DNA of 64,000 nucleotides. It comes from Thermodesulfobacteriota bacterium. GTDB lineage: Bacteria > Desulfobacterota > Desulfobaccia > Desulfobaccales > 0-14-0-80-60-11. The DNA is taken from assembly GCA_049322355.1 (NCBI GenBank), contig JBMORG010000011.1:186597-250596 (forward strand). Direction: 5' to 3'. Of the stretch, positions 5,792 to 55,364 are shown piece after piece (within the stretch, counting starts at the first letter, position 1; each line of letters opens with the position of its first letter). The notes under the pieces were generated by a model. The model was not told where the DNA came from. It did not search any database and worked only from the letters and a program-made list of their open reading frames with translations. The translations under genes and the position numbers were made by a program.

Positions 5792-5806
5792 GGAAAAGGA
5801 GGCCTG

Positions 5807-11920: not shown

Positions 11921-12073
11921 AAAAGCTCCTGGTTTGCGGTTTTCGGTTTTCGGTTTTTGGTTACAGAGTTTGCCATAAAATTTCTGCTGAGGTTGGTTTT
12001 TTAAATCCCCCTAAATCCCCCTGCGCCCCGGCATTGGCGGCAGTGCCTCTGCTTACTGCTCACGGCTCACGGC

Positions 12074-29228: not shown

Positions 29229-29759
29229 GTGGTTTTTACCGAAAACCGAAAACCGAGAACCGAGAACCGTCTTTTATGGCTCTGGCTGGTGAGGTTAATC
29301 CTCGCTCTCTGGGGGCTGCAAGTCTTGTGGTTGTTCTGGCACTTTGGGCCGGAGGCTGGCGAAGTGGCCCGGAGAGCGGCCCACGGCAACATAGGGGCCG
29401 CCATCCGCCAGGAAGACCCGCTGTACCGCTGGGCCACCGCACTCAAGGTCGTCATTCCAGAGAACGCCGCCTATGTTTTTCTGGATGATTACGCCGCGGG
29501 CAAGGAAATCGAGGTCCGCTACTATATGGCGCCCCGGCGCCACATCTTGATGTCACCGGAAGTGCCGGCCAGTTTTCTCTTCTCTAGGCTGCACCAGGAG
29601 AACGCCTCTTTTCTACTTCTGCGGGAGTCGGCGCAGTCTTTGGGACCCGGGGTTCAGGCTGCCCTTCAAAGTCCAGCCTTTCACCGGCTAAACCTGCCGG
29701 GCCCAGGCCAAGTCTTTCGGGTGGACGCAAAGCTTTTGCACTGGGGCTTTTATGATTGA
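29229..29759 (+). CDS. Membrane-anchored hypothetical protein
   Basis: N-terminal TM helix; overlaps the next gene; start uncertain because of GAAAACC repeats. Confidence 0.65.
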   Translation: MVFTENRKPRTENRLLWLWLVRLILALWGLQVLWLFWHFGPEAGEVARRAAHGNIGAAIRQEDPLYRWATALKVVIPENAAYVFLDDYAAGKEIEVRYYMAPRRHILMSPEVPASFLFSRLHQENASFLLLRESAQSLGPGVQAALQSPAFHRLNLPGPGQVFRVDAKLLHWGFYD

Positions 29760-37611: not shown

Positions 37612-40566
37612 CTAATGGGTGGGATTGGTATAGTCGAATTTAGCGGTTCCGTCCCCATCATACAATCCCCAATGGGGACCGATGTCTCCTTCGTTAACTT
37701 TCCAAGCCTCATCGAACATCTCAAACAAGAAACCGCTCCAGCCTTTGCTGACCATCCAGTTGGATGCAGTCGTGACATATAACTGCTCATTGGCGACACT
37801 GGCCACGGACTGGCCATAGGAAGTTCCGGCGCTGGGCCAACCGGTTTCGCCGATGGTGATATTCTTGCCGGTATTGGCATATAGCGCAGTGAAATGATCG
37901 TAGTTCCAATTCAGGTTGGCCTCGATGGCTGACTGGGTCGCGGGGGTGCCGTTAGGCCCGGCATACCAGGGATAGATGTTGATCATCCAGGCCCCGATAT
38001 AGTCACTGGCATATTGCCGCAAATAACTGCCATGAGCGCCGTCCGCAGCCCCGAAAGAGAGATCGGTGGTGACCGTGACATTTTGGCGGCGACTTGCCGA
38101 AAGGCCTTCATATGCGGTTTTCAAATCGTACACCAAGTCGGCGTCGGTTACATAATTGCTGGCGTGCTGAGGGTCGCCGCTCAAGCATTCGTTGCCGACG
38201 ATAATGCCCACGACGTTGGTGTATGTGTTGGCCAGATTAATAGCGGTTTGCAGGTCAGCCCAGGATTGGCTCGAAGTCACATAACCGCTGTTGGGATCGC
38301 TATAGATCTCAACCCCCAGGACAATTTTCATATTTGGATAATAAGTCTGGGCTATGGATGGTAATTGGTCGAGGCCGTTGCCCACCGTATAGGTTTTCAC
38401 GTAGTCAAATTTCTGCGCCATGATCGCCAGGTCCGATTGCAGCTGGGTAGTACTGATGGTGCTTCCTTGGTTCTGTCCGGGTAAGTGGAACGGCCCATAG
38501 TCGACCCCCACAAATGAACCATCGGCTTCGTAATATCCGCCGCCGAAATAGTAGGCCCCAATGCCCGATTGGATGATGTGGTCATGCTCGCTGGTCAGGT
38601 AGGCGGTGCCCACCGCACTGCCGTTGCTCACCGGGGTGTAAGTTTTCCCCAGCTCATTATCGTAGTAGCTGGTTACATAAACCTGGCCCCCCTGGCCGAA
38701 GTCCGCCGCTGCCACCTCCCTGTTGGAGATGTAGTATTGCCCCCAATTGCCGGTCTCATCCAGGGTCCAATAGGTATAGCCTACGCTATACCCGTAATCC
38801 GCCGGCGCATAGACGTAGCCGTAATAATAATCTCCGCTGCCATAGCAATTCCAATACCAGAAGTCATAGCGGTCCGCCTTGGCATCGGCTTCATAATAAC
38901 CACCCCCGAAATAGTAGGCTTCAATGCCCGATTGGATGATGTAGTCGTGTTCGCTGGTCAGGTAGGCGGTGCCCACCGCGGTGCCGGTGCTCACCGGGGT
39001 ATAGTCTTTGCCGCTCCCCGCATCGTAATAGTTGGTCACATAGACCTGCCCCGCCTGACTGTAATCCGCCGCCGCCACCTCACTGCCGTAAATATAGTAA
39101 TACCCTGAATAGCCAGATTCATCCTGGGTCCATTTGATATAGCCCGGGGTGTACCCGTAATCCGCCGGAGCATAAACGTAGCCGGAATAATAATCTCCGC
39201 TACCGTTACTGTTCCAATACCAGAAGTCATAGCGGTCCGCCTTGGCATCGGCTTCGTAATATCCGCCGCCGAAATAGTAGGCCCCAATGCCCGATTGGAT
39301 GATGTGGTCATGCTCGCTGGTCAGGTAGGCGGTGCCCACCGCACTGCCGTTGCTCACCGGGGTGTAGTCTTTGCCGCTCCCCGCATCGTGATAGCTGGTC
39401 ACATAGACCTGCCCCACCTGGCTGTAATCCGCCGCCCCGAACTCAATGCCGTAGATATAGTAACACCCTAAATAGCCGGATTCATCCTGGGTCCATTCTG
39501 TATAGCCTAAGCTATAGCCGTAATCTGCCGGAGCATAGACGTAGCCTAAATAATAATCTTTGCTGCCATAATAATTATAATAATAGAAGTCATAACGATT
39601 TGCGGGGGTTGTCAAATATATTTCATTGTCAGTGCCATCGAAACCATACCACACAATTTGGCCGTTCACATTTACCTGGGGCTGATAATCATCATAACTG
39701 TCATCAGTTTGCTGTGTAATTGTCCCGGCGCTGTATAGATATATCTCATAGTCGGTGCCATCGTACCCGGACCAATAAATTTGGCTGTTCAAATCCATTT
39801 GGGGTTGATTATCATCATAGCCATCACTAGTTATCTGAGTAATTGTCTCATTGCTGTATAAATAAATTTCATAGTCAGTGCCATCAGATCCAGACCACAC
39901 AATTTCCCCATTAGCATTGATCTGGGGCTGAACATCATCATAATCATCGTAAGTTATCGGCGTACTTGACCCAGCGCTATAAAGATAGATATCATAATCA
40001 GTGCCGTCATAACCAAACCACACAATATCGCCGCTCGCATTGATCTGGGGTCCATAATCATCATAACTATCTTCGGTTATTGGTGTACCGGTCCCCGCGC
40101 TGTATAGATATATATCATAGTCAGTGCCGTCATAACCGGACCAGGCAATGTCGCCGCTCGCATTTATAGAAGGTTGCCAATCATCATAACTATCATTTGT
40201 TATAGGGGTGGTCGTCCCGGCGCTGTACAGATAAATTTCGTAGTCAGTACCATCATGGCCCGACCAGACAATTTGGCCGCTCGCATTGATCTGGGGTTGC
40301 CCGTCTTCATAACTATTATCAGTTATCTGCGTTGTGGTCCCGGCGCTGTATAAATATATTTCATAGTCGGTGCCATCAAAAGCGGACCAAACAATTTGGC
40401 CGCTCGCATTGATCTGGGGTCCCCAAGCATCGTAACTGTCGTCGGTGATTTGAGTCGTAACGTAATTTGCTGCGGCCGCAGGCAATAAGGGCATTGCACC
40501 TATCGATAAAGTTAATGAATAAGCCAGAAGTATCAGGAAGTTCAAAAAACTTATCTTGGTTTTCAT
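37612..40566 (-). CDS. Secreted modular protein: 7x41-aa beta-propeller repeats, 3x121-aa Tyr-rich repeats, GH17-like glycoside hydrolase
   Basis: Signal peptide; QITDxxYDDxxPQINxxGxIVW..DGTDYEIYLY repeats; RYDF..YYEAD repeats with 363-bp period; GH17-type VDYGP, IIVGNE, IGETGWPS, FEMFDEAWK, HWGL. Confidence 0.85.
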   Translation of the reverse strand: MKTKISFLNFLILLAYSLTLSIGAMPLLPAAAANYVTTQITDDSYDAWGPQINASGQIVWSAFDGTDYEIYLYSAGTTTQITDNSYEDGQPQINASGQIVWSGHDGTDYEIYLYSAGTTTPITNDSYDDWQPSINASGDIAWSGYDGTDYDIYLYSAGTGTPITEDSYDDYGPQINASGDIVWFGYDGTDYDIYLYSAGSSTPITYDDYDDVQPQINANGEIVWSGSDGTDYEIYLYSNETITQITSDGYDDNQPQMDLNSQIYWSGYDGTDYEIYLYSAGTITQQTDDSYDDYQPQVNVNGQIVWYGFDGTDNEIYLTTPANRYDFYYYNYYGSKDYYLGYVYAPADYGYSLGYTEWTQDESGYLGCYYIYGIEFGAADYSQVGQVYVTSYHDAGSGKDYTPVSNGSAVGTAYLTSEHDHIIQSGIGAYYFGGGYYEADAKADRYDFWYWNSNGSGDYYSGYVYAPADYGYTPGYIKWTQDESGYSGYYYIYGSEVAAADYSQAGQVYVTNYYDAGSGKDYTPVSTGTAVGTAYLTSEHDYIIQSGIEAYYFGGGYYEADAKADRYDFWYWNCYGSGDYYYGYVYAPADYGYSVGYTYWTLDETGNWGQYYISNREVAAADFGQGGQVYVTSYYDNELGKTYTPVSNGSAVGTAYLTSEHDHIIQSGIGAYYFGGGYYEADGSFVGVDYGPFHLPGQNQGSTISTTQLQSDLAIMAQKFDYVKTYTVGNGLDQLPSIAQTYYPNMKIVLGVEIYSDPNSGYVTSSQSWADLQTAINLANTYTNVVGIIVGNECLSGDPQHASNYVTDADLVYDLKTAYEGLSASRRQNVTVTTDLSFGAADGAHGSYLRQYASDYIGAWMINIYPWYAGPNGTPATQSAIEANLNWNYDHFTALYANTGKNITIGETGWPSAGTSYGQSVASVANEQLYVTTASNWMVSKGWSGFLFEMFDEAWKVNEGDIGPHWGLYDGDGTAKFDYTNPTH

Positions 40567-40834
40567 ATAATCTCCAAGAAGCTTAAATGGGATTACTTCG
40601 ATTTCTTGCCAGGTAGGTCTTATCCTAAAATGGAAGGCCCAGACAAAATCCGAGCCTCAAGGGCTAGGCGCAGGGAACCTTCCACCTCGCAATCCTTCGT
40701 TTTCTCTCTGCATGAGGGCTCCCATCAAACAAGAAAGATATTTGTATATTAAACCATTAAACTTGTATTCTCAACATTTTTTTCCAGCAATTTTTAATAT
40801 AGATGAATTCCGGTAATAGAAATTATACCGGTCT

Positions 40835-43057
40835 TTAGCTGCCCACATCAGCCTCGTAATACCCGCCCCCGAAATAGTATGCCGGGATGCCGGCCTGGAT
40901 GATGTAGTCGTATTCGCTGGTCAGGTAGTTGGTGCCCACCGCGGCGCCGTAGCCTACCGGGGTGTAGGTGTTGCCACTCTCATTATCGTAGTAGCTGCTC
41001 ACATAGATCTGACCCTTCTGGCTGTAATCCACCGCGGCCTCCCCCTTGCCGCAGACATAGTAAAACGCCCAGTTGCCGGTCTCGTCCAGGGTCCAATGTG
41101 TATAACCTACGCTATACCCGTAATCAGCCGGCGCATAGAGGTAGCCGTAATAATAGTCCCCGCTGCCATAACAATTCCAATACCAGAAGTCATAGCGGTC
41201 AATATTGGCATCGGCTTCATAATATCCGCCCCCGAAATAGAATTGCGAGATGCTGGATTGAATTATGTAGTCGTACTCGCTGGCCAGATAGTCGGCACCC
41301 ACCGCGGTGCCGTAACTGACCGGGGTGTAAGTGTTGCCGCTCTCATTATCATAGTAGCTGGTCACATAGACCTTACCTTTTTGGCTGTAGTCTCCCGCCG
41401 CCGCCTCACTGCCGGAGATACAGTAATACCCCCAAGAACCGGCCTCATCCTGGGTCCATAGCACATCTCCCACGCTATACCCGTAATCCGCCAGCGCATA
41501 GACATAACCGTAATAGTAGTCCCCACTGCCATAGCAATTCCAATACCAGAAGTCATAGCGATTAACGACGTCGGCTTCGTAAAACCCGCCCCCGAAGTAG
41601 AATTCCGGGGCGCCGGACTGGATGATATAGTCGTGTTCGCTGGCCAGGTAGCTGGCGCCCACCGCGGTGCCGTAGCTTAGCGGGGTGTAGGTGTTGCCGC
41701 TCTCATTATCGTAGTAGCTGGTCACATAGACCTTACCCCTCTGACCGTAATCTCCCCCCGCCTCGCTGCCGGAGATACAGTATTGCCCCCAAGAGCCGGC
41801 CTCATCCTGGGTCCAGATCACGTCTCCCACGCTATACCCGTAATCCGCCGGCGCATAGACGTAGCCGTAATAATAATCCCCGCTGCCGTAGCAATTCCAA
41901 TACCAGAAGTCATAGCGGTACAATGGTTGGATGGCGAGGTAAATCTCATAATCGCTGCCATCAGACGCCTCCAGGACAATATCCCCCTTGGCATTGATCT
42001 GGGGGCGATCGTCGTCATCTCTAGGGTAATAGTCGCTGATCCTTATCGGCACCCCCACCGCCCTGGTGTCGTAATAATAAATCTCACCATCATTATAGGT
42101 TTTGTACACCCACCAAACGATCTCCCCATTGGCATTGATTTGGGGGTCGTAGTCACTTAAACTGTTGTCGCTGATATTTAACGGTGCCCCACCCACCCGG
42201 GCGTCGTAATAATAAATCTCATAATCACTACCGTCCAATCCCTGCCAGACGATCTCTCCGCTGGCATTGATCTGGGGAGAAAGATCATTGTAATTGTTCA
42301 TGCTGATCTTTGTCATGCCCCACCCCACCCGGTAATAATAAATCTCATAATCACTGCCGTCATGCCCCCGCCAGACGATCTCCCCGTTGGCATTGATCTG
42401 GGGGAGCGAATCATTTGAACTGTTGTCGGTGATTTGTACAGGATCGCCTCCGAACCGGGCGTCGTAATAAAAAATCTCGGTATCACTACTGTCTAATCCA
42501 TACCAGACGATCTCTCCGTTGTCATTGATCTGGGGACTGTAATCATTGTAACTGTTATTGGTGATCTGTATCGGATCCCCACCCACCCGGGCGTCGTAAT
42601 AATAAATCTCATAATCACTACCGTCCAATCCCTGCCAGACGATCTCCCCGTTGGCATTGATCCGGGTGTGATAGTCGTTACCAATGTTGTTGGTGAGTCT
42701 TTTCGGACTTCCACCCAGACGGTAATAATAAATCTCAGAATCATTGCCGTCAGACCCATACCAGGCGATCTCTCCGTTGTCATTAATCTGGGGGAAACTT
42801 TCGTCGTAACTGTTGTCGGTGATCTGTATCGGATCCCCCCCCAGCCGGGCGTCGTAATAATAAATTTCGCGATCACTGCCATCATGCCCGACCCAAACAA
42901 TCTCACCGTTGGCATTGAGATGAGTGGCATAATCACTGGAGCTGTTGTTGGTGATCTTTGAAACAGTATAATCAACCGCTGCGGCTGGAGAGGTTCCCAG
43001 GACCAGCGCCGCCATCGCGGCCACGATAAGCCATAATTTTACTCCGTTACGTCTCAT
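40835..43057 (-). CDS. Secreted paralog: 8 beta-propeller repeats + 3 Tyr-rich repeats, no catalytic domain
   Basis: GGAGG RBS, signal peptide, 42-44 aa INxNGEIVW repeats, three RYDFWYWNCYGSGDYY..YYEAD units. Confidence 0.85.
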   Translation of the reverse strand: MRRNGVKLWLIVAAMAALVLGTSPAAAVDYTVSKITNNSSSDYATHLNANGEIVWVGHDGSDREIYYYDARLGGDPIQITDNSYDESFPQINDNGEIAWYGSDGNDSEIYYYRLGGSPKRLTNNIGNDYHTRINANGEIVWQGLDGSDYEIYYYDARVGGDPIQITNNSYNDYSPQINDNGEIVWYGLDSSDTEIFYYDARFGGDPVQITDNSSNDSLPQINANGEIVWRGHDGSDYEIYYYRVGWGMTKISMNNYNDLSPQINASGEIVWQGLDGSDYEIYYYDARVGGAPLNISDNSLSDYDPQINANGEIVWWVYKTYNDGEIYYYDTRAVGVPIRISDYYPRDDDDRPQINAKGDIVLEASDGSDYEIYLAIQPLYRYDFWYWNCYGSGDYYYGYVYAPADYGYSVGDVIWTQDEAGSWGQYCISGSEAGGDYGQRGKVYVTSYYDNESGNTYTPLSYGTAVGASYLASEHDYIIQSGAPEFYFGGGFYEADVVNRYDFWYWNCYGSGDYYYGYVYALADYGYSVGDVLWTQDEAGSWGYYCISGSEAAAGDYSQKGKVYVTSYYDNESGNTYTPVSYGTAVGADYLASEYDYIIQSSISQFYFGGGYYEADANIDRYDFWYWNCYGSGDYYYGYLYAPADYGYSVGYTHWTLDETGNWAFYYVCGKGEAAVDYSQKGQIYVSSYYDNESGNTYTPVGYGAAVGTNYLTSEYDYIIQAGIPAYYFGGGYYEADVGS

Positions 43058-43640
43058 GGTCTTACCTCCTTTGCCCCTGTCGGCTTTACTTGCCCCTGGC
43101 TTTGTCCCTAAACAGGCGGAGTGCGCTTGGCTTTCCCGCCCTAAGGCTGTTTTAATCCTGCATCATACTGGGGCCGCGCTGGATAATGCTGTCGGCTGCT
43201 GCAAGCGCCGATTCCCGTACTTAAAGCCCCATGCCGTAACTGCCTTATATTGTTTCTGAAACCTCTGCCTCTGAGCTTAACCTCGATACCACCCCGTTCT
43301 AACGGAGAGAAATATTATCACAATTTTTTTGTAAAAGTATAGTGTAATAAAATTTTTTCTTTATAGAACTACAGAGTCCAACAGCAAATCTTTAATTGAT
43401 TTGCCGCCCCTGATCCCCAGGCCAACACCGCCACTAGCCTTTTCTTCCATCTTTCTAGTTCCCGCTAACTTGGAAACGCCCGAAGTTACTTGCAAGCCAA
43501 GCTTGGCATTCGTTTTCGCTCACAAGTGCAACTTGGGAACGAGGTGAAGACCTTAACGTTCTCTTCCTTAAAACGGGCTTTTTCTGATATGATAGGTTAG
43601 TCGTCTTTTCCGAACACTATGCTTTAGAGCGTTTAACCCA

Positions 43641-43728
43641 AATCCCCCTGCCTCCCCTTTTCAAAGGGGAAACCTGGTGGAATTCCTTAGAAAGGCCCCC
43701 TTTGAAAAAGGGGGATTTAGGGGGATTT
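43641..43728. repeat. AATCCCCCT..CCCCTTTGAAAAAGGGGGATTTAGGGGGATT palindrome
   Basis: Same family as 21446-21530 and 37257-37333. Confidence 0.7.
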
Positions 43729-43768
43729 ATAATCATCGCACTCATACCATAATTACGGAGACTCAGGT

Positions 43769-46252
43769 TTGCCGGAACAAGCAGCTATCGATGCCCCAGA
43801 GGAGTTGGAGCAGCCGGACCCCGGAGAAAAAGAACACCGCCGGGAACTCCATCTGTTTAATCAAATCGCCACCATCACCGCCCATACCCTTGACCTCCAG
43901 GAGATCATCAATGCAGTCCTCACTGCGGTTCTGCAGTTCTTCCACATCGACGCTGGAATGTTACTGTTGTGGGACCGGGTGAGCCAACGCCTCACTTATG
44001 CCGCCTCCCGGGGCTTCCCCCAGGAATACTTGGGAGAGATCTCCGAACGGGCTTTGGAGAGCCTTACGGGCCCTAATTGTTCCCGGGCCGTGGAGCCTTT
44101 AATCATTAAGGATGTCAGGGCAGACCGCCGCCTCCTCTCCTCCACCTTTACCCAGGTGATCCGCCATGACCCCAGGTTCCGTTCGGTTGTCAGCATCCCC
44201 CTGAAATACCGGGACGATATCACCGGGTTTCTCAATCTGGCCGCACAAAACGCTGGACCGTTCCGGGCTTCCCGGCGGCGAAAATATTTCTTCACCATCC
44301 TGGGGAACCAGATCGCTCTGGCCATTGAGAACGCCCGTCTGTATCATGAGCTGCGGCGCTCGGAGAAGCGCTACCGCCGCATCTTTGAGGGGTCCAAGGA
44401 TACCATCTTCATCACCGACCAGGAAGGCCGCCTCTTGGACCTCAATCCCGCGGGTGTAGAACTCTTGAAGTTTCCCTCCAAGACCGACGCTCTAAAATTG
44501 CGCCATCTGCGGGAGGTCTTTCAGAATCCCCGGGATTGGGAGCGTTTTCAGCTCAAAGTGGAAGTTGAGGACTATGTCCGGGACCTGGAATTGACCCTGA
44601 AGCCTCAGGGCGGCGGCCAGGTTCACACCCTGCTCACCGGTATCGTGCGGCGCAACAAAGAAGGACGCATCAACGGCTATGAGGGCATCTTAAAGAATAT
44701 CAGCGAGCGCAAACTGAAGGAGTGGGAACTCCTCCGGGAGAAGCAGACCACCGAGGGCATCCTGGAAGGGTTGCCAGTGCCCACTTTCGTCATTGACCGG
44801 ACCCACCGCATCATCTATTGGAACCGGGCTTGCGAGGAATTGACCGGGTTTTCCCGGCATGAAATGGTGGGGACCTACCGCTACTGGCTGCCGTTCTACA
44901 CTTATGAACGGCCTTCCATGGCCTCCCTGGTAGTGGAACAGAACATCAAGGCCCTGGAAAAATTCTTCGGGGATAAGAACCTTAAACCCTCCCCCATCCT
45001 GCCAGGAGCTTACGAGGCTTATGAGCATTTTGCCAATTTTCGGGGACAGGAACGCTATCTTTATCATACCGCCTCTCCCATCTATGATGAGGCAGGTCGC
45101 ATCCAGGGAGCGGTACAGGTCATCCTGGACGTGACCAAACGTGAGCAACTGGCCCGGGACCTCACGGATTCCGAAGAAAAGTTCCGCCGCCTGGTGGAGA
45201 CCTCTTTGGACGGCATAGTCCTCCACCGCGATATGAAACTTTTGTATGTAAACCGGGCCTGCCTGGAGATGTTCAATTACCAAAAACCCGAGGAGATGTT
45301 GAATCGCTCCCTGGCCCGGTTTGTAGACCCGCAGTACCGGCCGCTGGTGGCCCGCTGGCAGACCCAATTGCAGCGCCGGCCCGCCGCTCCCAGGATCTTC
45401 GAAATGAAGGGGGTCAGAAAGGACGGCAGCACCTTCGACTTGGAGGGCGTCTCCTTTCCCGCCACATACCACGGCAAGCCCGCCATCCAGACCCATATCC
45501 GGGATATTACCCACAAGAAGCATCTGGAGGAACACCTCATCCGGACGGAAAAACTGGCGGCTTTGGGACAATTGGCCGCAGGGGTGGCTCACGAAATCAA
45601 CAATCCCCTGGGGGGCATCTTAGTCTACAGCTACCTGCTCCTTGAGGACCTAAAGCAGGGAGCTCCGGAACGTACCCAGGTGGAAAAAATTGTCCGGGAG
45701 GCCACCCGTTGCAAGGAGATCGTCCAGGGGCTCCTGGAGTTCTCCCGGCACATGCCCTCCAAAATGGTACCCCTGAATATCAACAGCGTTCTGGAAGAAG
45801 TGATTTCTCTGGTGGAGGACCATCTCCAATTACAAAACATCAAAATGGTCCTGGAATTGGATCCGCATCTTCCTACCGTGCTGGGAGACAAGAGCAAATT
45901 GGAACAGGTATTCATCAATCTGTTGATGAACGGCGGAGAGTCCATGAAGGGCGAAGGGAGGCTCACTGTAAGCACCACAACGGCCCAAAGCGATGACTTG
46001 GTGCTCATCCGCTTCCAGGATACCGGTCCCGGCATCCCGGAACCCTTTCTCAGCCGACTCTTCGACCCGTTTTTCACCACCAAGGAAGTGGGCAAGGGCG
46101 TGGGGCTGGGATTGTCCATCAGTTATGGCATCATTCAGAAACATTTTGGGAGAGTCTACGTGGAGCGGACTGGTAAAGACGGGACGGTCTTTGCCATCGA
46201 ACTCCCGGTGCACCGGCAAGTAGGGGACCCTGCAGGTGAAAACCAGACTTAG
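43769..46252 (+). CDS. Cytoplasmic GAF-PAS-PAS-PAS sensor histidine kinase (NtrB-like)
   Basis: ALAIENARLY, PAS repeats, AAGVAHEINNPL, QVFINL, DTGPGI, FDPFFTTK, GVGLGL. Confidence 0.93.
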   Translation: MPEQAAIDAPEELEQPDPGEKEHRRELHLFNQIATITAHTLDLQEIINAVLTAVLQFFHIDAGMLLLWDRVSQRLTYAASRGFPQEYLGEISERALESLTGPNCSRAVEPLIIKDVRADRRLLSSTFTQVIRHDPRFRSVVSIPLKYRDDITGFLNLAAQNAGPFRASRRRKYFFTILGNQIALAIENARLYHELRRSEKRYRRIFEGSKDTIFITDQEGRLLDLNPAGVELLKFPSKTDALKLRHLREVFQNPRDWERFQLKVEVEDYVRDLELTLKPQGGGQVHTLLTGIVRRNKEGRINGYEGILKNISERKLKEWELLREKQTTEGILEGLPVPTFVIDRTHRIIYWNRACEELTGFSRHEMVGTYRYWLPFYTYERPSMASLVVEQNIKALEKFFGDKNLKPSPILPGAYEAYEHFANFRGQERYLYHTASPIYDEAGRIQGAVQVILDVTKREQLARDLTDSEEKFRRLVETSLDGIVLHRDMKLLYVNRACLEMFNYQKPEEMLNRSLARFVDPQYRPLVARWQTQLQRRPAAPRIFEMKGVRKDGSTFDLEGVSFPATYHGKPAIQTHIRDITHKKHLEEHLIRTEKLAALGQLAAGVAHEINNPLGGILVYSYLLLEDLKQGAPERTQVEKIVREATRCKEIVQGLLEFSRHMPSKMVPLNINSVLEEVISLVEDHLQLQNIKMVLELDPHLPTVLGDKSKLEQVFINLLMNGGESMKGEGRLTVSTTTAQSDDLVLIRFQDTGPGIPEPFLSRLFDPFFTTKEVGKGVGLGLSISYGIIQKHFGRVYVERTGKDGTVFAIELPVHRQVGDPAGENQT

Positions 46253-46470
46253 AGAAAAAAAGTACAAATAATTGCCTGGGCCTCACGGCCCCAACAGCCG
46301 TTATCCGGTTGAGACTTTGATATAAGACTTCGATTATTTTAGGCAATCAGGCTAAAATTTTTCTCTCCAGCTATTTGCCAAAAATTATTGACTATGGGGC
46401 AGGGGTATGATAGGTAGGCACATGTGAAAAGAATCATTTTCTCCGGAGGTCAACCTCCGGCGGGAAGGCA

Positions 46471-46704
46471 TTGCGGCAAGACACCAAAAATTTTTTAAAA
46501 GAGCTTTTTTCCGGCGGCTATCGGGCCAGTGCCATCGGCATGGCCTTGGTGTTTGCCATCTTCATCGGTGCCTTCCTGGGGTATTTGCTGGATAATTACT
46601 TCGGTACCGGCTATCTTTTTAAAATTATCGGCTTGATAATGGGAATTATTGCCGGCTTCCGGAACGTCTATATCATGGGCAAAAAGTTCCAGGATAAGAA
46701 GTGA
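46471..46704 (+). CDS. AtpZ/AtpI-family protein
   Basis: IGMALVFAIFIGAFLGYLLDNYFGT..GIIAGFRNVY; first gene of the Fo cluster. Confidence 0.85.
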   Translation: MRQDTKNFLKELFSGGYRASAIGMALVFAIFIGAFLGYLLDNYFGTGYLFKIIGLIMGIIAGFRNVYIMGKKFQDKK

Positions 46705-46717
46705 GGGGCAGGGCCTT

Positions 46718-47149
46718 ATGGATATCATGTCCCCTCGCCACTTGAAAATCGCCAATTGGATAGTTTTGGCAGTACTGGTCCTGGCCGGGTTCTGCTGGCG
46801 GGGCCGGGAATTTGCCCTGGGGGTTCTAGTGGGTGGCCTGGTGGTGGTCATCAATTTCCATCTCCTGCACCAGGCCCTGCGTAACACCTTGGGACAACTG
46901 GCCCAGAACCCTCAGGAGGGTTCAAGCCGAGCCAAGGCTTTTTTTGCCGCCCGGCAGTTGTTGCGGTTTTTTGCGCTGCTGGCCATTATATTCCTGTTGG
47001 TCGGCCAGGGTTGGGTTAATATCTTCGGGCTGCTGGTGGGTCTGTCCACGGTGGTCATAACCTTAATACTGGCCGCAATTAACGAAACGATCAAGCTTAA
47101 GAATAAGGAGGCAAACCCGTCCCATGGAACATCCCATTCTATTCCTTGA
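46718..47149 (+). CDS. atpI: ATP synthase subunit I
   Basis: Four hydrophobic segments, GVLVGG..INF, GLLVGLS; precedes atpB. Confidence 0.8.
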   Translation: MDIMSPRHLKIANWIVLAVLVLAGFCWRGREFALGVLVGGLVVVINFHLLHQALRNTLGQLAQNPQEGSSRAKAFFAARQLLRFFALLAIIFLLVGQGWVNIFGLLVGLSTVVITLILAAINETIKLKNKEANPSHGTSHSIP

Positions 47150-47801
47150 TTTGCTTTTTGAATCCTTTAAGCTGCATATCCCTCCCCATGTCTCTTATGC
47201 CGTGGTGGTTTCCCTCATCCTCCTGGGGTTAGGCATGCTGGCCGGCAAGAAGATCTCCATGGTACCCTCCGGCGCCCAGAACGTCTTTGAATTGATCGTC
47301 GGCGGCCTGGAAGAATTCATGGTGGAGATCACCGGTGAAGAAGGCCGGGCCTTCTTCCCATATATTTGCACCGTGTTTTTGTTCATCATGTTTTGCAACC
47401 TCATCGGTTTGATCCCAGGGTTCTTGTCGCCCACGGCCAACATTAACACGACCCTGTCTCTGGCCCTGTGCACTTTCATGTATACTCACTACCTGGGGAT
47501 CAAGTACCATGGGGCCAAGTATATTAAGCACTTCCTGGGACCCATCCCGGCCCTGGCGCCGCTGTTCTTCCCTATAGAAATCATCGGCCACTTTGCCCGG
47601 GTGCTCTCCCTGACTTTGCGTCTTTTCGGCAATATCATGGGGGAAGATCTGGTGCTGGCCATCCTGCTGTTCCTGGCCGGAATGTTCCTGGCCCCCTTGC
47701 CCATGATGTTCCTGGCAGTGTTCACCAGCGTCGTGCAGGCGTTCGTGTTCACCTTGCTGTCCATGATGTATTTTGCCGGGTCCATGGAGCACGCACATTA
47801 A
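47124..47801 (+). CDS. atpB: Fo ATP synthase subunit a
   Basis: PSGAQN, NLIGLIPG..PTAN, RVLSLTLRLFGNI, QAFVFTLL. Confidence 0.97.
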   Translation: MEHPILFLDLLFESFKLHIPPHVSYAVVVSLILLGLGMLAGKKISMVPSGAQNVFELIVGGLEEFMVEITGEEGRAFFPYICTVFLFIMFCNLIGLIPGFLSPTANINTTLSLALCTFMYTHYLGIKYHGAKYIKHFLGPIPALAPLFFPIEIIGHFARVLSLTLRLFGNIMGEDLVLAILLFLAGMFLAPLPMMFLAVFTSVVQAFVFTLLSMMYFAGSMEHAH

Positions 47802-47931
47802 AAGTAGCTTTCAGCCATCAGCTTTGAGCTATAGTTTTTATTGGCTAAGCGCTGATAGCTGAAAACTGAAAGCTTAATTTCGGAAGAAGGCCAAACTTCA
47901 TATATCCACATTATTTAGGAGGTTTAAGGAA

Positions 47932-48309
47932 ATGAGAAAATCCCTGGTTCTTGGACTGAGTATGCTGGTAACCCTGCTTTGGGCTTCCCTGGCTTTGGCG
48001 GCTGAACCCGCCGCAGGCGGCGCTTCCGCCGGCTTGGGCACCTTTTTCAGCTATGCGGTGATGGCCGCGGGCTTCGGCATCGGCATCGCCGCTTTCGGTA
48101 CCGGCATCGGCCAGGGCCTGGCCGTGAAGAGCTCGGTGGAAGGCATCGCCCGTAACCCCGAGGCTTCCGGAAAAATCACCGTTACCATGCTGATCGGTCT
48201 GGCCATGATCGAATCCCTGTGTATTTATGCTCTGGTCGTGGCGCTGATCATTCTTTACGCTTACCCCATGGCCAAACCCATTGCTACGGCCCTGGGCTTC
48301 AAGATGTAA
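47932..48309 (+). CDS. atpE: Fo ATP synthase subunit c with N-terminal signal-like extension
   Basis: [28 protein letters not shown]. Confidence 0.96.
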
Positions 48310-48323
48310 CCAACTGAAACTTG

Positions 48324-48346
48324 AAGGGGGGCGTTATGCCCCCCTT
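48324..48346 (+). terminator. Hairpin terminator after atpE
   Basis: Perfect 9-bp stem AAGGGGGGC-GTTAT-GCCCCCCTT. Confidence 0.7.
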
Positions 48347-48424
48347 AATTTCAAGTATTTTGTGCTATTTTGTACAAAGTCAGATGGAACTGACACTCAT
48401 AGTGATTGATCGATGCGCTCGGCA

Positions 48425-49060
48425 ATGAAATTTTCCAAAATCCCCACCGCCACAATCACCCGTTTGTCCATTTACTCCAGATATCTTGAGAACTTGTCTC
48501 AAGAAGGGGTGAAGATCATCGCCTCGGACAAATTGGCCCAAAAATGCGGCATTAACCCGGCCCAGATCCGCAAGGACTTGGCGTATTTCGGGGAGTTCGG
48601 CATCCGGGGGGTGGGTTATTTTGTCAAGGAATTGCTCTTCGAAATCAAACGCATCCTGGGCCTCAACAAGACCTGGAAGATGGCCTTGGTGGGGATCGGG
48701 AATCTGGGCTCGGCGCTCCTGGCCCATCAGAATTTTATCCGGCAAGGCTACGAATTCGTGGCGGTTTTTGACATCGACCCGGCCAAAGTGGGACGCCGGG
48801 TGCCCAGCGGCCAGATCATTTATTCCGTGGACGATTTGGAACAGGTGGTCAAGGACAAGGGCGTAGAGATCGGCGTCATTGCCACCCCGGCCGCCAAGGC
48901 CCAAATGGCGGCACTGCGTCTGACTGCCGCGGGCGTCAAAGCCATCCTTAATTTTGCTCCCATCCAATTGCAAGTACCCGAAGGCATGGCGGTGGAAAAT
49001 GTGGACTTCACCGTCAAGCTGGACAATCTGGCCTATAACCTCACCATGGGCGAAGGCTAA
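48425..49060 (+). CDS. rex: Redox-sensing transcriptional repressor Rex
   Basis: IPTATITRLSIY, QIRKDLAYFGEFGIRGVGY, VGIGNLG, ILNFAP. Confidence 0.96.
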   Translation: MKFSKIPTATITRLSIYSRYLENLSQEGVKIIASDKLAQKCGINPAQIRKDLAYFGEFGIRGVGYFVKELLFEIKRILGLNKTWKMALVGIGNLGSALLAHQNFIRQGYEFVAVFDIDPAKVGRRVPSGQIIYSVDDLEQVVKDKGVEIGVIATPAAKAQMAALRLTAAGVKAILNFAPIQLQVPEGMAVENVDFTVKLDNLAYNLTMGEG

Positions 49061-49197
49061 AGACTGTTTCCGGTTTTCGGTTTTCGGTTTAAAAAATTAA
49101 AAAAATCTAGGCCGGTTTGGAAAAATGCTCTTGTGACTACGGCATTATCCCACGGTTCTTCAGGAAATTTGCGATTGTGAGAGTCGTCATTCAGATA

Positions 49198-49369
49198 TAT
49201 AGCGTTTGCCGAAAGTTGTCGCTGAGTTATCCGGTTTGATTTGTCATTCTGAGCGCAGCGAAGAATCTGGCTTTTTTGAGATTCTTCGGTCGCTTCGCTT
49301 TCTCAGAACGACAATCATAGGTAGCTCGTAAGACTCTCGAATAGGAAAAAACTTTTGGCAATTTCTATA
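49198..49369. mobile_element. TIR-X MITE, intact reference copy
   Basis: TATAGCGTTTGCCGAAAGTT ... AACTTTTGGCAATTTCTATA; GTCATTCTGAGCGCAGCGAAGAATCT hairpin cargo. Confidence 0.75.
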
Positions 49370-49429
49370 AAGCCAGGGGACAGACCCGAAGGCCTGCCCC
49401 TTGCCGTTTCCCTGGACCCTTCCAGGCCG

Positions 49430-49561
49430 TTAATCTTCTTTGCCGGGCTTTTTGGTATTGAGCGCCACCCAAACGCTCGCCACCATCAACAACAGACCAT
49501 ATAAAGAGCAACCCCAAGGGCTGAGCTGTCCGAAGTAGCCGATTTCCGCAAGAAATTCCAT
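49430..49561 (-). CDS. Candidate 43-aa single-pass membrane protein (below the ORF-track cut-off)
   Basis: MEFLAEIGYFGQLSPWGCSLYGLLLMVASVWVALNTKKPGKED; TTGCTT-16-TACAAT upstream (49605-49632). Confidence 0.45.
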   Translation of the reverse strand: MEFLAEIGYFGQLSPWGCSLYGLLLMVASVWVALNTKKPGKED

Positions 49562-49698
49562 TGTCTTGTCCACTCAACTTTCTGGAAAAAGATTTGTTAA
49601 TATAATTGTATCTTGCAAAATTGGAAAAGCAAAGGTTATTTCATCATTTTTAATTATACAATAATGTAAAATTGATTATCTGCCGAATGCCAGGAAAT

Positions 49699-52512
49699 TT
49701 AATGCAGCAACTCCCGCAAAAACCGGCCGGTGTGGGATTCGGGGTGGCGGGCCACATCTTCCGGGGGGCCTGCGGCCACGAGTTGGCCGCCGCCGTCGCC
49801 GCCCTCAGGGCCCAGGTCGATGAGGTAGTCCGCGGTCTTGATGACTTCCAGGTTGTGCTCGATGACGATAACCGTGTTACCTTCATTCACCAGGCGGTTG
49901 AGCACCTGGAGCAATTTTTCGATGTCCGCCAGGTGCAGCCCGGTGGTGGGTTCATCCAATATGTAAAGGGTGCGGCCGGTGGCCCGCTTGCTCAGCTCCC
50001 GGGAGAGCTTGAGGCGCTGGGCCTCCCCACCCGATAGAGTGGTTGCCGACTGCCCCAGCTGCACGTAGCCCAGACCTACGTCCGCCAGGGTTTGCAGCCG
50101 GTCCCGGAGGGCCGGAATCGGCCCGAAAAACTCCAGGGCCTGGTCCACCGTCATTTCCAGAACCTCGGCGATATTTTTGCCCTTGTAGCGAATCTCCAGG
50201 CTGGAGGCATTGTAGCGCAGGCCCCGGCAAACCTCGCAGCGCACATAGACGTCGGGCAAAAAGTGCATCTCGATCTTGTTGATCCCCTCCCCCCGGCAGG
50301 CCTCGCAACGCCCCCCCTTAACATTGAAACTGAAGCGCCCGGGCTTATAGCCCCTGAGGCGCGCTTCGGGCACCTGGGAAAAGAGCTCCCGGACTATGGT
50401 GAACAGCCCGGAATAAGTGGCGGGATTGGACCGGGGGGTACGGCCGATGGGACTCTGGTCGATGTTGATCACTTTGTCCAGGGCTTCCAGGCCGACAATC
50501 TGGTCATAGGGCGCGGCGGAAATCTTGGCCTGGTAAAGCTTCTGGCGCAGGGCCAGGTAGAGGGTATCCATAATCAAGGTGCTCTTACCGGACCCGGACA
50601 CTCCGGTGACGCAACTCAGCACTCCCAAGGGGATATCCACCTCCAAACCTCTAAGGTTGTGGCCCCGGGCGCCCACCAGACGCAGAAACCCCTGGGGCCG
50701 GCGCCGGCCCCGGGGCAGATGGATTTCCCGCCGCCCCGACAGGAAGAGCCCGGTGAGTGAGCGGGTATGGTGCAACAGTTCCTGGGGAGTGCCGTCGAAG
50801 ACCACTCGCCCCCCTTCCCTTCCGGCGCCCGGTCCCATGTCCACCACAAAATCGGCCTGGCGGATGGTTTCGGGATCGTGCTCCACCACGATCACAGTGT
50901 TGCCCAGGTCCCGGAGGGCCTTCAGGGTGTGAAGGAGTTTCTGGGTATCCCGGGGATGGAGGCCGATGCTGGGTTCATCCAGGATATAGAGGACCCCGGA
51001 GAGCTTGGAACCGATCTGGGTGGCCAGGCGGATGCGTTGGGCCTCGCCTCCGGCCAGGGTGGCGGTGGCCCGGTCCAGGCTGAGATAATCCAGTCCCACC
51101 TCAGATAAGAACCCCAACCGCTCGGTGATTTCCTTTAAGATGCGCCGGGCGATCTCCGCCTGGCGGGGAGACAGTTCCAGACCGCCGAACCAGGAGATAG
51201 CCCGGGTCACCGTAAATCCGGTCACCTCACTGATGTTGGCCCCGTCGATCTTCACCGCCAGGGCCTCCCGGCGCAACCTGGCCCCGCCGCAGTCGGGGCA
51301 GGGTTTAAAGCTCATGAACTGCTCGATATCCTCCCGCACCGCGGCAGAGTCAGTCTCGTCATAACGTTCCTTGAGGAGAGGAATCACCCCGGGAAAAGCC
51401 CGGGGGCTGTAAAAGCGGCGGCCGCCCTGCTCGTAGAAAAAATTAATGGGATGAGCGTTGGAGCCAAAGAGCAAAGCCTCCTGTACCTCCTTGGGCAGGT
51501 CCCCAAAAGGCGTATGAATGGAGAAGTGGTAGTGCTGCTCCAGAGCTTCCAGCATCTGCTGGTGCCGGAGGGAATGGCGGTGGGCCCAGGGCCGCACTGC
51601 CCCTTCCCGCAAACTTAAAGCAGGGTTGGGGACTACCAGATCAGGGTCGATGACCAGGCGGCTGCCCAGGCCGCTGCAGGCCGGGCAAGCCCCTTGAGGG
51701 CTGTTGAAGGAAAACAGCCGAGGAGTGAGTTCGGGCAGCGATACGCCGCAGTGATCGCAGGCAAAGCGCTCTGAAAACAGCAGCTCTTCGCCGTCCACCA
51801 CCGCAATGCGCACCACGCCGTCCGCCAGCTTCAGCGCCAGTTCCAGGGAGTCGGTGAGCCGGGCCCCCAGGTCCGGCTTGATTACCAGCCGGTCCACCAC
51901 CGCTTCGATGGTATTCCGCTTGTTCTTATCCAGAACGGGAATCTCTTCCAGCTCCATCACTTCGCCGTTAAGGCGGATGCGGCTGTAGCCCTCGCTGCGC
52001 AGCCTCTCCAGGAGCTTTTGATGTTCCCCTTTGCGATTCACCACCACCGGCGCCAAAATCGTGATGCGGCTGCCTTGGGGCAAACCCATGATCTGGTCCA
52101 CCATCTGGGGGACACTCAAAGACGAGATGGGCCGTCCGCACTGGAAGCAGAAGGGGGTGCCAATCCGGGCGAACAGGACCCGGAGGTAATCGTAGATTTC
52201 AGTGGAGGTGGCCACGGTGGAGCGGGGGTTTTTGGAGGCCGTGCGCTGTTCAATAGCTATGGACGGAGACAGCCCTTCGATATACTCCACATCGGGCTTG
52301 TCCATCAATTCCAGGAATTGCCGGGCGTAGGCCGACAGAGATTCCACATAACGGCGCTGCCCCTCGGCGTAGAGGATGTCGAAGGCCAGGGTGGACTTCC
52401 CGGAACCGCTCACCCCGGTAATCACGATAAACTGGTTGCGGGGCAGTTCCAGATCGATGTTCTTGAGGTTATGTTCCCGGGCGCCCCGGATAATAATCTG
52501 GTGTACGGGCAT
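49699..52512 (-). CDS. uvrA: Excinuclease ABC subunit A
   Basis: GAREHNLKN, two GVSGSGKS Walker A motifs, Zn fingers, [20 protein letters not shown]. Confidence 0.98.
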
Positions 52513-52547
52513 TACTTACTTATCTGCAGAGAGCCGGAGCAGAATAA

Positions 52548-52811
52548 TCAGGCGGTAGCCTTGACGGTGGAATCGGTTTTGGGTTGCCGGGCAGCGGGCT
52601 CTTTCTGCTTGGGTTTGCGACCCCGCTTTTTCTTAACTTCATAAGGCACAAATTTGATTCCCTGGGCGCGGCCCGCCCCCCCTGGCCACAACAGCGGGCC
52701 ATTGCCAAAATGACGGGCAATTTCGGCCAGGGTCCAATCCAGATATTTGGATGGTATTATAGTTACTTCTAATTTCAGCCCCATTTCGGGACGGTCTTTG
52801 CCTCTGGACAT
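52548..52811 (-). CDS. Small basic hypothetical protein upstream of uvrA
   Basis: AAGGA RBS; 87 aa with a Lys/Arg-rich tail. Confidence 0.55.
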
Positions 52812-53142
52812 TTATCATTCCTTGCTAATAAAAGGTTAATCCCGGCTCAGGGAAACAACCTGAGCCACAAATATTAATTTTATCCGCTTTCCTTACCGAG
52901 TGCCATAAATTTTATACCGTAGGGTATACAAAGCGATTCCCAAAGTCCTTTACTTCTTATTCTCCCAGGCCTTATGAAGGGAGTCCGGGTGACGGGTCAA
53001 AAAAACCTTCGGCATTAAATGGCCATTGGTTGGGGCTGGCATCAATCCAGCATGACTCAGCCTGAAGGTGACGGGTGCAATGGTTGGGCCGAGGTCTGGA
53101 AACTTCGAGGATTAACTTACGGGCGCAACTTGGAGGAAACGG

Positions 53143-53883
53143 TCAAATCACCAAGCCGTTGCCGGGATTGGCTTTAAGGGTACCGGCCAGGGCATAGCGC
53201 ACCCGGTTGGCCTTCTCACCATTGTGCACCAGAATTCCTTCCTGAAGCAAAAGGTTTAAATAGGCCCAAGCGGTTTTCTTGTTCACCTGAAACCGGGCCT
53301 CAAAGTCCAACAGACGAAACCAGCGGCCCTCGGTCTCCTGGAGAAAGTCCCACAAAGTCTCAGGAGTGAGCTTGCGCCGACCTTTCTCGGGCAAACCGAT
53401 CTTCCCCAGGGCCTGGCGCAAGGCGTCGGTCTTGACCAGTTCCTGTTTTGGCCGAAGTCGGCTGGCCTCAACCAGATTCGGCTTGCCCCCGATCCAGTCC
53501 TGTTTGGCGAAATAGAAACCCACCTCTTCCTCAATGAGGTTGAGAAGTCGGTAAAACTGGGACAAGGTAATCTGCCCCGCCAACTGATTGACCAGATAAT
53601 CTTTGGCCCGTTTACGCACAAAGGAGACCCGCTCCTGGGCGCCGGCCGGCAAACGGGAGGCTTCCAGCATCACCTGGAAAAACATGCCCGCTACCAGGGT
53701 GGTATCAAGTCCGCGCCCCGGTGGCGGCAAAACAGGAGAACTTTCCGATACCCCCAGGGTCCCGACATCCAAGGCCCAATCGGCAAAATCGTCTTCAAAA
53801 TCCTCGACTTTGCTCGGTGAAAACAGTTCCAATACCGGAGGCGTGAGAGTGCGGACTAAAGTAAGGATGGCGTCGCGGTCCAT
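53143..53883 (-). CDS. Hypothetical protein with a C-terminal winged helix-turn-helix
   Basis: AAGGAGG RBS before ATG 53883; FRLLDFEARFQVNKKTAWAYLNLLLQEGIL..G..RVRY. Confidence 0.7.
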   Translation of the reverse strand: MDRDAILTLVRTLTPPVLELFSPSKVEDFEDDFADWALDVGTLGVSESSPVLPPPGRGLDTTLVAGMFFQVMLEASRLPAGAQERVSFVRKRAKDYLVNQLAGQITLSQFYRLLNLIEEEVGFYFAKQDWIGGKPNLVEASRLRPKQELVKTDALRQALGKIGLPEKGRRKLTPETLWDFLQETEGRWFRLLDFEARFQVNKKTAWAYLNLLLQEGILVHNGEKANRVRYALAGTLKANPGNGLVI

Positions 53884-54200
53884 GCCTAAGCCCTCCTTGG
53901 CTCTGGCATGATTATAAGGGATCAAGTGCCTGAGAGCAATGTTATAATAACTAAAATATTTCTCTAAATTATCAAAAGATTATCCAAGTGGGGGTGCAAC
54001 TGTCTTAAATCATCTTATCCTATCTCTAACATCATTTATACATTTTTGGATTTTCATTACAATATAAAGTTCCCGCGAAAATCCTGTCTCTTCACCTTTC
54101 TTGCCATTCTGAGATTGATAACGAAGCCACCAAAGAACCCGCAATTAGGAGATAGTTTTCGAAGCGCAGCATGACATTTCGCAGGAGTTTTGCCAAGATA

Positions 54201-55364
54201 TTAATAACTTATATAATAATAGTCTATAAAGTCAAAAACCATAGCCTGCGTTGGGCTGGTGCCATAGCGAGTCCGATTCCAGTTAATTTTTTCATTGGTA
54301 TATGACAACCCCCACCCAAAATTAAGTAGGACATCACCATTATTCCAATATCCCCTGCCAACCGTGGAGTGACCGCCTGCACTCCACAATATATCTACTA
54401 TCACTGGTCGCCCCGCATCCAGGGCGGCTTTGTAGGCGTTCCAGCCGCCAGAACGATTCCAATAGACATCTCCGTAATAGTAGGTAAATCCCTCCGAATA
54501 CAAGCTGCTAATAGCATATCCCTGGTCCTTAGTATAGTCTAGTAAACCCGGCCCGATTTTATTGGAATATGTGCCAATGTTAGGCAAATATCCCATATCA
54601 TATGCCAGAGTGGCAATAAATGATACATAAGAATCTGGGTTATCCTGACAATATCCGGGGCAATCCAGCCAGTTATTTTGCCAATCAGGAATAATAAGGT
54701 TGGAGTAGCCCGACTTGTCCCAATAGGAAAGCAGGATTGCCCCGGCTACTTGGGAACAGGAACCGCAGTAATCGCTGGGTTGAGTCCAATAAGGTAAATC
54801 CGTTATATAGACTGATAAAAAGTCCGCTTGCTTTTTTGTGCTGAAACTATAAACCGTATCGCCATTGCCATAATACGGGTCGCTAGATGGTACTGAAGGA
54901 TCATACACATATCCCAATTCCACTTCATGTGGCCTATTACTAACAAAAAGATAACTAAAGGTAGCATTGTTTAGGCCTGTGCTGAAAATATAACTACTTT
55001 TTCCACTACTGTCCATATCAAAATAGCCTGTTATATACTCTTGCTTATCGTAAGAGGAGCTAAAACCGTTAGTAATACCAGTGATGTAATAATGACCGCC
55101 TAAAGCCTCCCCTCCCATTTCATCAGGATGGTAATAAATACTTGAGCCTACATTTATAAATGGTCCGGAAGTCTGAAAGTCAGTTGGAGCATAAAGAAAG
55201 CCCGTGTAGTAGTCGCCATGGTTATCGGTATAGAAATATTTAAAATCATATCGACTGAAAAGACCTTCGGCAGGCTGGGCATTATTAGCATTGCTTAAAA
55301 CCGTAATCAACAGCAATAGCCATAATGCAGCCAGACCTCGCAAATCTTTGGTGGAGATTTTCAT
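54201..55364 (-). CDS. Secreted papain-like cysteine peptidase (C10/C39-like) with an N-terminal Tyr-rich module
   Basis: GGAGG RBS, signal peptide, RYDFKYFY..GDYYTGFLYAPTDF; Q..CSQVAGAILLSYW, GGHSTV.RGY, NFGWG; AT-rich. Confidence 0.75.
   Translation of the reverse strand: MKISTKDLRGLAALWLLLLITVLSNANNAQPAEGLFSRYDFKYFYTDNHGDYYTGFLYAPTDFQTSGPFINVGSSIYYHPDEMGGEALGGHYYITGITNGFSSSYDKQEYITGYFDMDSSGKSSYIFSTGLNNATFSYLFVSNRPHEVELGYVYDPSVPSSDPYYGNGDTVYSFSTKKQADFLSVYITDLPYWTQPSDYCGSCSQVAGAILLSYWDKSGYSNLIIPDWQNNWLDCPGYCQDNPDSYVSFIATLAYDMGYLPNIGTYSNKIGPGLLDYTKDQGYAISSLYSEGFTYYYGDVYWNRSGGWNAYKAALDAGRPVIVDILWSAGGHSTVGRGYWNNGDVLLNFGWGLSYTNEKINWNRTRYGTSPTQAMVFDFIDYYYISY

Follow-up and report, generated by a model that had tools for sequence, protein, structure and literature searches.

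Within a 64,000-nucleotide stretch of a Thermodesulfobacteriota genome (GenBank assembly GCA_049322355.1, contig JBMORG010000011.1; this whole stretch is referred to as the window), three proteins with apparent signal peptides share a tyrosine-rich module of about 120 residues, which is encoded three times in open reading frame (ORF) A, three times in its adjacent paralogue ORF B and once in ORF C, 11 kb away. This module is a real, rare and undescribed extracellular domain family that is all-beta, very acidic and Tyr-rich. Its boundaries, copy numbers, partner domains and distribution, together with the absence of a family or fold match, were established by profile, repeat and structure searches. 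The role that we favor for it, held tentatively, is that of a generic and self-sufficient repeat of secreted surface or matrix proteins, one that is acidic, possibly Ca2+-stabilized, and both adhesive and structural in a multivalent manner.

The three proteins of the window combine the module with different partner domains. ORF A (37612..40566, minus strand, 984 aa) comprises a signal peptide, a seven-repeat propeller, three modules and a GH17 domain; ORF B (40835..43057, minus strand, 740 aa) comprises a signal peptide, an eight-repeat propeller and three modules; and ORF C (54201..55364, minus strand, 387 aa) comprises a signal peptide, one module of the cap type (type 2, described below) and a papain-like peptidase domain. 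Both arrays were recovered by Tandem Repeats Finder with a period of 363, in ORF A at 38520-39594 (3.0 copies, 83% matches, 0% indels) and in ORF B at 40845-41924 (3.0 copies, 82% matches, 1% indels). The individual copies, all on the minus strand, were delimited as A1 (39241..39600, aa 323-442, canonical type, 183.7 bits), A2 (38878..39237, aa 444-563, canonical type, 191.6 bits), A3 (38515..38874, aa 565-684, canonical type, the copy that was folded singly), B1 (41567..41920, aa 380-497), B2 (41204..41563, aa 499-618) and B3 (40838..41200, aa 620-740), the last of which forms the C-terminus of ORF B and ends 3 residues beyond the final YYEAD. The motif RYDF starts at aa 324, 445 and 566 of ORF A and at aa 381, 500 and 621 of ORF B.

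The six copies of ORFs A and B are 65-86% identical to one another, and the copy of ORF C (54810..55262, minus strand, aa 35-185) shares 34-37% identity with them. A hidden Markov model (HMM) trained on those six copies only detected the ORF C copy with 24.9 bits over profile positions 2-86 (E 0.0016, assuming a nominal database size of one million), and this was its sole further match among the 626 window frames of at least 50 aa. The window copies consist of 19-22% Tyr and 25% aromatic residues, and their approximately 12% Asp plus Glu against 2.5-3.3% Lys plus Arg amounts to a roughly fourfold acidic excess. An earlier interpretation made from the letters of this DNA (the sequence-only reading) had placed the seven copies three, three and one in these ORFs with a 363-bp period, had named the payloads as a 7-blade propeller with a GH17 domain, an 8-blade propeller and a papain-like peptidase, had assigned signal peptides to all three proteins, and had related the N-terminus of the peptidase to the tandem repeats. 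All of this was borne out, with the peptidase lying just over its profile cutoffs, the signal peptides (on ORFs A, B and C, as well as on the giant protein described below) being judged by eye rather than by a predictor, and the six-copy HMM giving a significant match to the N-terminus of ORF C.

The module could not be assigned to any family in the libraries searched, in keeping with its having been called unrecognized beforehand. No Pfam-A or NCBIfam family fell on it in ORFs A, B and C at E<=0.1, and no Pfam family fell on it at E<=1e-4 in 120 homologues (those left of 150 listed matches after removal of the 3 window proteins and of 27 that fell short of 250 aa). There was accordingly no match to SLH (PF00395) in Pfam, no Big, Cadherin or Calx-beta profile on the module itself, no carbohydrate-binding module (CBM) or lectin profile on it in ORFs A-C or the 120 homologues, and no sorting-signal profile from Pfam or NCBIfam. 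For the array-only proteins, precomputed Pfam annotation based on a newer release was empty, and a 46-copy profile compared with the PDB sequences found as its best row cadherin-22 at a non-significant E of 0.34. In the source databases the homologues are named "hypothetical protein" or after their other domains, and no publication on the domain surfaced in full-text literature searches as judged from titles and the openings of abstracts. One candidate family was considered and rejected: DUF4468 scored 39.2 bits in the homologue P0001, a total that is read as weak matches summed over 10 near-identical repeats, because no single stretch passes and the best one straddles a module junction.

Structure prediction and a Foldseek search, which the sequence-only reading had proposed as a check, gave confident all-beta models and no PDB match. 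The AF2 model of module A3 (46-row alignment) has eight beta strands with a pLDDT of 86.1 and a pTM of 0.81, and the model of the three modules of ORF B (aa 380-740) reached a pLDDT of 89.9 and a pTM of 0.65; the latter value, spanning three domains, suggests that the modules adopt a defined mutual orientation. With both the one-module and the three-module models, Foldseek against the PDB returned no match at E<=0.001, with TM <=0.30. A VIA-align comparison with 48,161 chains returned none at Z>=5, and its best rows (Z 4.7-4.8) covered part of the module only, where the guidance of the method itself places typical background at Z 7-8. The top structural rows were the FKBP-type sheet of trigger factor and SlyD, and MM3350, over residues 1-56 or 1-85 only and at background level, while Fab and invasin rows had TM <=0.14. 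An ESM Atlas search with the module scored 0.82 at best (DUF6515), which is within the chance range, and a homodimer prediction for two copies gave a score of 0.01 against a mark of 0.42 in a run without controls, which speaks neither for nor against self-association. The predicted fold is possibly a new one, with which the models are compatible while not proving it.

The domain is rare and patchily distributed. It was matched by 274 of 1,835,955,588 cluster representatives at E<=1e-3 (63 at E<=1e-30), and a phylum-wide sample held it in 2 of 401 genomes, both of the window's own family. Among 41 related genomes, five carry the module, with 1, 20, 35, 44 and 60 matches. A pattern scan with the 7-row alignment identified one public metagenome-assembled genome (MAG) only, labelled "uncultured delta proteobacterium". 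Named homologues belong to Microcystis, Okeania, Synechococcales, Chroococcales and a Snowella MAG, that is, to cyanobacteria that form colonies or mats. The description of the module as a lineage-specific plug-in domain therefore stood in part: it is a plug-in that occurs with many unrelated payloads, and its cyanobacterial homologues and 274 cluster representatives show that it is not confined to one lineage.

Within the window's own genome (G000), 35 module matches are spread over seven genes, so that the set of three proteins recognized at the outset is real and incomplete, there being four more. Six of the matches lie in ORFs A and B, one in ORF C, 24 in an ORF of 5012 aa, one in a 415-aa paralogue of ORF C that is encoded elsewhere in the genome and is 47% identical to it, and three in two further proteins, of 294 aa (two matches) and 554 aa (one match). 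The 5012-aa giant protein, found by profile search, is encoded outside the window on contig C10 (L011:3093-18131, minus strand). CBM96 and C-type lectin domains occupy aa 42-195 and aa 919-1014, respectively, of its N-terminal region, and no family matched the approximately 1000 residues at about aa 1720-2720. The gene contains 12.0 copies of a 381-nt unit with 80% matches, which points to amplification at the DNA level.

The anatomy of the family was surveyed in 170 proteins with 550 modules, at 1 to 24 copies per protein. Modules occur directly after the signal peptide, internally or terminally, and 73 of the 170 proteins, many of them metagenomic fragments, end within 15 residues past a module. 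Of the 380 consecutive pairs, 321 are joined by an effective linker of between -6 and 10 residues, most often 0-2. By a crude signal-peptide test, 10 of the 170 proteins consist of a signal peptide and modules only, for example seven modules in 901-904 aa. Over 386 copies (non-redundant at 70%), conservation is highest at glycines, at core aromatics and at the acidic residues D15, E40, D72, E96, E116 and D118, which lie mostly in loops of the AF2 model; the YYEAD end is also highly conserved.

Two subtypes of the module can be distinguished. The canonical type ends in FGGGYYEAD, and the cap type (type 2) lacks such an ending and carries the motifs FQTS, QP.EMGG and ADR..E.GYA. A total of 45 of the 550 modules score far better with the cap HMM than with the canonical HMM, of which 37 are the last of their array; the cap HMM was seeded with the ORF C module and five similar copies of the same genome, and these seeds are counted in the 45. 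The ORF C module, itself such a seed, scores 215.7 bits with the type 2 HMM versus 25.1 with type 1. Divergence of this copy had been noted from the sequence and holds, but the copy belongs to a distinct subtype and is not merely a diverged repeat. Other cap modules of the genome lie at L013:5373-5795, L012:4513-5292 and L014:5619-5996, all on the minus strand.

A cap is followed in one of three ways: in ORF C, its paralogue and the 16-module protein P0001 by a peptidase domain, in P0136 by a GH17 domain, and in other proteins by an Ala/Ser/Pro linker that leads into a conserved C-terminal tail with the consensus SQAVWAAYWSQ..LLEEE. Of the 166 stored homologues, 17 carry this tail according to a regular expression, as does one ORF of the window's genome, and the giant protein was found to have it by reading; the copies in the window's genome are at L011:3093-3200 (the C-terminus of the giant protein) and L014:5511-5600, both on the minus strand. 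As a DNA pattern, the tail occurs at 3 places in the window's genome (2 of them at module genes), at 8 in the related genome G022 and at 2 doubtful places in G037, with none in G030 or G323 and 0 for a reversed-pattern control. The tail has no transmembrane stretch, and the family searches of tail-bearing proteins matched no known sorting signal. As a separate observation, the C-terminal 200 residues of P0001 (2086 aa) resemble the ORF C peptidase with, by eye, Gly in place of the presumed catalytic Cys of ORF C and its paralogue, and may represent an inactive peptidase-like domain.

The architecture of these arrays invites the explanation that the module is a passive extender, a rigid spacer akin to the immunoglobulin (Ig)-like or cadherin-like stalk repeats of giant adhesins, that sets the distance between functional heads and a separate anchor. 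The 24 tandem copies of the giant protein behind its N-terminal CBM96 and lectin domains are what such a spacer would look like, as are the 0-2-residue linkers, the DNA-level amplification of the 381-nt unit, and the presence of separate C-terminal elements after arrays (a dockerin in 5 proteins, the WAAYWSQ..LLEEE tail in about 19). However, the array-only proteins have no head that needs spacing, small enzymes such as ORF C bear a single copy, ORF B and many homologues stop at the last module, and a spacer would not need the extreme Tyr content of the window copies (approximately 20% versus a family mean of 14.7%). We regard a purely passive extender as a minority possibility.

The Ig-like (BIg) and cadherin-like extender repeats are among the closest known counterparts. 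They share with the module an all-beta domain of about 100-120 residues that is acidic with conserved Asp/Glu, near-zero linkers (a likeness confirmed by the linker survey), up to 24 copies, DNA-level expansion and an occurrence in giant secreted proteins with lectin or CBM domains. The module differs in having no sequence match to them and no Ig-like or cadherin fold among its structure matches, and in occurring also singly on small enzymes and in array-only proteins.

The partner domains bear on a second alternative, in which the module would be a CBM that, by binding a defined glycan such as a beta-glucan or exopolysaccharide, directs enzymes there. Among the 120 homologues, partners included FG-GAP (7), PPC (7), dockerin (5), Kre9_KNH (5), M10 (4), calpain C2 (4), Calx-beta (4), LGFP (4), CARDB (3), NIDO (3), C-type lectin (3) and GH17 (2), as well as M8, GHL15, GH43_C2, a pectate-lyase-like beta-helix, cadherin-like domains, RTX and CBM96. 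The co-occurrence with GH17 (ORF A and 2 homologues), GHL15, GH43_C2, the beta-helix, CBM96 and C-type lectin domains agrees with glycan targeting, as do the high aromatic content and the polysaccharide-synthesis genes beside two module genes. Yet the partners are mostly peptidases and adhesion-type repeats instead of glycosidases, and profile searches gave no CBM or lectin match. No CBM was present among the Foldseek or VIA-align rows either, which is not decisive given that an unlisted family may still share the fold. Strong negative charge and long arrays, here of up to 24 copies, are unusual for CBMs. A specific glycan-binding role is likewise regarded as a minority possibility. Compared with the CAZy CBM families, the module is likewise an aromatic-rich beta domain that is fused to GH17 and other glycosidases and that co-occurs with CBM96, and it departs from them in lacking a profile or fold match, in its mostly non-glycosidase partners, in its strong acidity and in its long arrays.

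The position of the module within its proteins addresses a third alternative, that it is a sorting or anchoring tag recognized by a machinery dedicated to secretion or attachment, in the manner of the type IX secretion system (T9SS) C-terminal domain and PEP-CTERM. The module is the very C-terminus in the 73 proteins counted above, its YYEAD end is well preserved, and the module-fused cysteine peptidase is confined to the module-rich genomes G000, G022 and G037. Conversely, the occurrence of modules directly behind signal peptides and at internal positions, in 1-24 copies, is at odds with a tag, no conserved neighboring machinery gene and no match to a sorting-signal profile was found, and G030 lacks a close homologue of the peptidase despite its 20 module matches. 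N-terminal and internal modules, in up to 24 copies, make a pure C-terminal sorting tag unlikely, and we give a role of this kind very little credence. The SLH, GW, choline-binding and LysM repeats resemble the module in their variable copy number, frequent C-terminal position, attachment to unrelated enzymes and aromatic richness; the module has no profile match to them, is 120 residues long and all-beta, whereas the SLH domain is short and helical, and its host is diderm.

The favored reading, that of a multivalent adhesive and structural repeat, would work as follows. The proteins would be exported past the cytoplasmic membrane, and the array would form a fairly stiff stalk that is probably Ca2+-stabilized at the conserved Asp/Glu positions. 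Its aromatic surface would adhere either to other arrays or to some envelope or matrix polymer, and in this way a fused GH17 glucan enzyme, propeller or cysteine peptidase would be retained on the cell surface or within the matrix of the aggregate. The existence of array-only proteins (10 of 170) speaks for a self-sufficient function, and the diversity of partners speaks for a generic rather than a substrate-specific role. The origin of the named homologues in colony- or mat-forming cyanobacteria also fits this reading. The polysaccharide-synthesis neighbors are weak hints from genomic context: a gene for an NAD-dependent sugar epimerase/dehydratase (L011:401-1384, plus strand) adjoins the giant gene, and one for a Bac_transf priming sugar transferase (L013:6726-8186, plus strand) adjoins the paralogue of ORF C.

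Several observations weigh against this reading. The module is absent from 36 of the 41 relatives and hence serves no core function, and G030, which has the fourth-largest count of matches, has no close homologue of the peptidase partner. Proteins with a Sec-type signal peptide only may, in a diderm host, be located in the periplasm. The dockerin (5 homologues) or the conserved C-terminal tail (approximately 19) could be the true anchor, with the modules as passive spacers. Additionally, the C-terminal third of the module was modelled differently in the one-module and three-module AF2 runs.

A bolder reading is given a low probability. In it, the module would be a new fold that mediates a Ca2+-dependent, cadherin-like cohesion, with arrays binding across cells or matrix in Desulfobaccales and in colonial cyanobacteria such as Microcystis and so holding aggregates or colonies together. 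The cap and the WAAYWSQ..LLEEE tail would mark the ends of arrays. Cysteine peptidases tethered to a module, namely ORF C and its paralogue, would attach to arrays through their own cap and process these arrays.

Gene neighborhoods do not extend the finding beyond the domain. The 11 kb between ORFs A/B and ORF C contains a histidine kinase, ATP synthase genes, Rex and UvrA, and the neighbors of the other module genes vary (sugar epimerase, LuxR-type regulator, Bac_transf, PanE, PCMT, PhoU). An all-against-all comparison of the non-module ORFs at 13 loci yielded no recurring accessory gene, and returned generic kinases, antisense shadows and local synteny only. Because no conserved accessory gene was found, the module is a domain and not a system; the suggestion of an undescribed system in the sequence-only reading is therefore not upheld, given the housekeeping genes between A/B and C, the differing neighbors and the lack of a recurrent partner gene. 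Close homologues of the ORF C peptidase domain were found in G000, G022 and G037 only and every one is fused to a module, so that their occurrence is not independent of the module count. On a contig of a related MAG (L019), a module protein has the length of ORF A (984 aa), with frames of note at 5116-8067 (plus strand) and 11588-12328 (minus strand), and a gene near it shares 64% identity with the ORF at 29752-31134 of the window, a sign that this region may be locally syntenic with the window.

The payload domains of the window proteins were resolved to differing degrees. The GH17 glycoside hydrolase or glucanosyltransferase domain of ORF A (37615..38514, minus strand, aa 685-984) matched PF00332 with an E of 7e-12 and 46 bits against a cutoff of 28.2, in an alignment confined to the last third of the profile (positions 225-303). 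By phmmer, it matched the beta-1,3-glucanosyltransferase of PDB entry 4wtp at an E of 9e-13, with IVGNE and GETGWPS aligned to IVGSE and SETGWPS, which we take to be the catalytic Glu motifs of a GH17 enzyme. The propeller repeats of ORF A (39601..40467, minus strand, about aa 34-322) comprise seven NxxGxIxW units of approximately 41 aa; Tandem Repeats Finder gave a period of 123 nt and 6.5 copies, the seven blades were counted by eye, and there was no Pfam match at E<=0.1.

The beta-propeller of ORF B (41921..42976, minus strand, aa 28-379), of PD40/TolB/Tricorn_N type, has a period of 132 nt by Tandem Repeats Finder and 8 NxxGxIxW blades counted by eye. In the ESM Atlas structures, aa 28-379 had TM 0.8-0.9 to PD40/Tricorn_N propeller clusters, and a precomputed match to PF26549 bears the Atlas name Tricorn_N. 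Matches to TolB and to the NxxGxxAF 'choice-of-anchor' family (TIGR05002, 26.3 bits versus a cutoff of 50) were weak. TIGR05002 and the PD40/Tricorn_N propellers are like the N-terminal repeats of ORFs A and B, and thus concern a partner domain and not the module. An RHS match in ORF B (E 0.015, aa 222-232) was rejected for lying inside the propeller and below threshold.

For the Cys-peptidase-like domain of ORF C (54204..54809, minus strand, aa 186-387), the C10 (PF01640, 26.6 bits, cutoff 26) and C39_2 (PF13529, 26.7 bits, cutoff 24) profiles were both barely exceeded, and no PDB sequence matched. Candidate catalytic residues, picked by eye only, are the Cys in GSC-SQVAGA and the His in GGHS. 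Further open frames cross the repeat regions of the window, antisense at 38569-39108, 41096-41461 and 41783-42160 (plus strand) and on the same strand in another frame at 42493-42975 (minus strand). Such long frames recur wherever modules occur, and their matches between loci are shadows of the module genes; these frames are most likely not genes.

Overall, tandem extracellular repeats are a familiar theme, and what is new here is a family that is not in Pfam, NCBIfam or the PDB sequences searched, and that has a confidently predicted fold for which the searches of solved structures found no counterpart. A definition of the family would give a name to hundreds of "hypothetical" regions and would provide a handle on enzyme retention and cohesion in anaerobic aggregate-formers and colonial cyanobacteria. 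Bloom-forming Microcystis, in which the proteins of the colony matrix are, to our knowledge, poorly understood, also has proteins with the module. If the fold is truly new, or if the module is a homophilic adhesion unit, the finding would be more than a routine new domain of unknown function (DUF), and the family is worth a formal definition and a solved structure.

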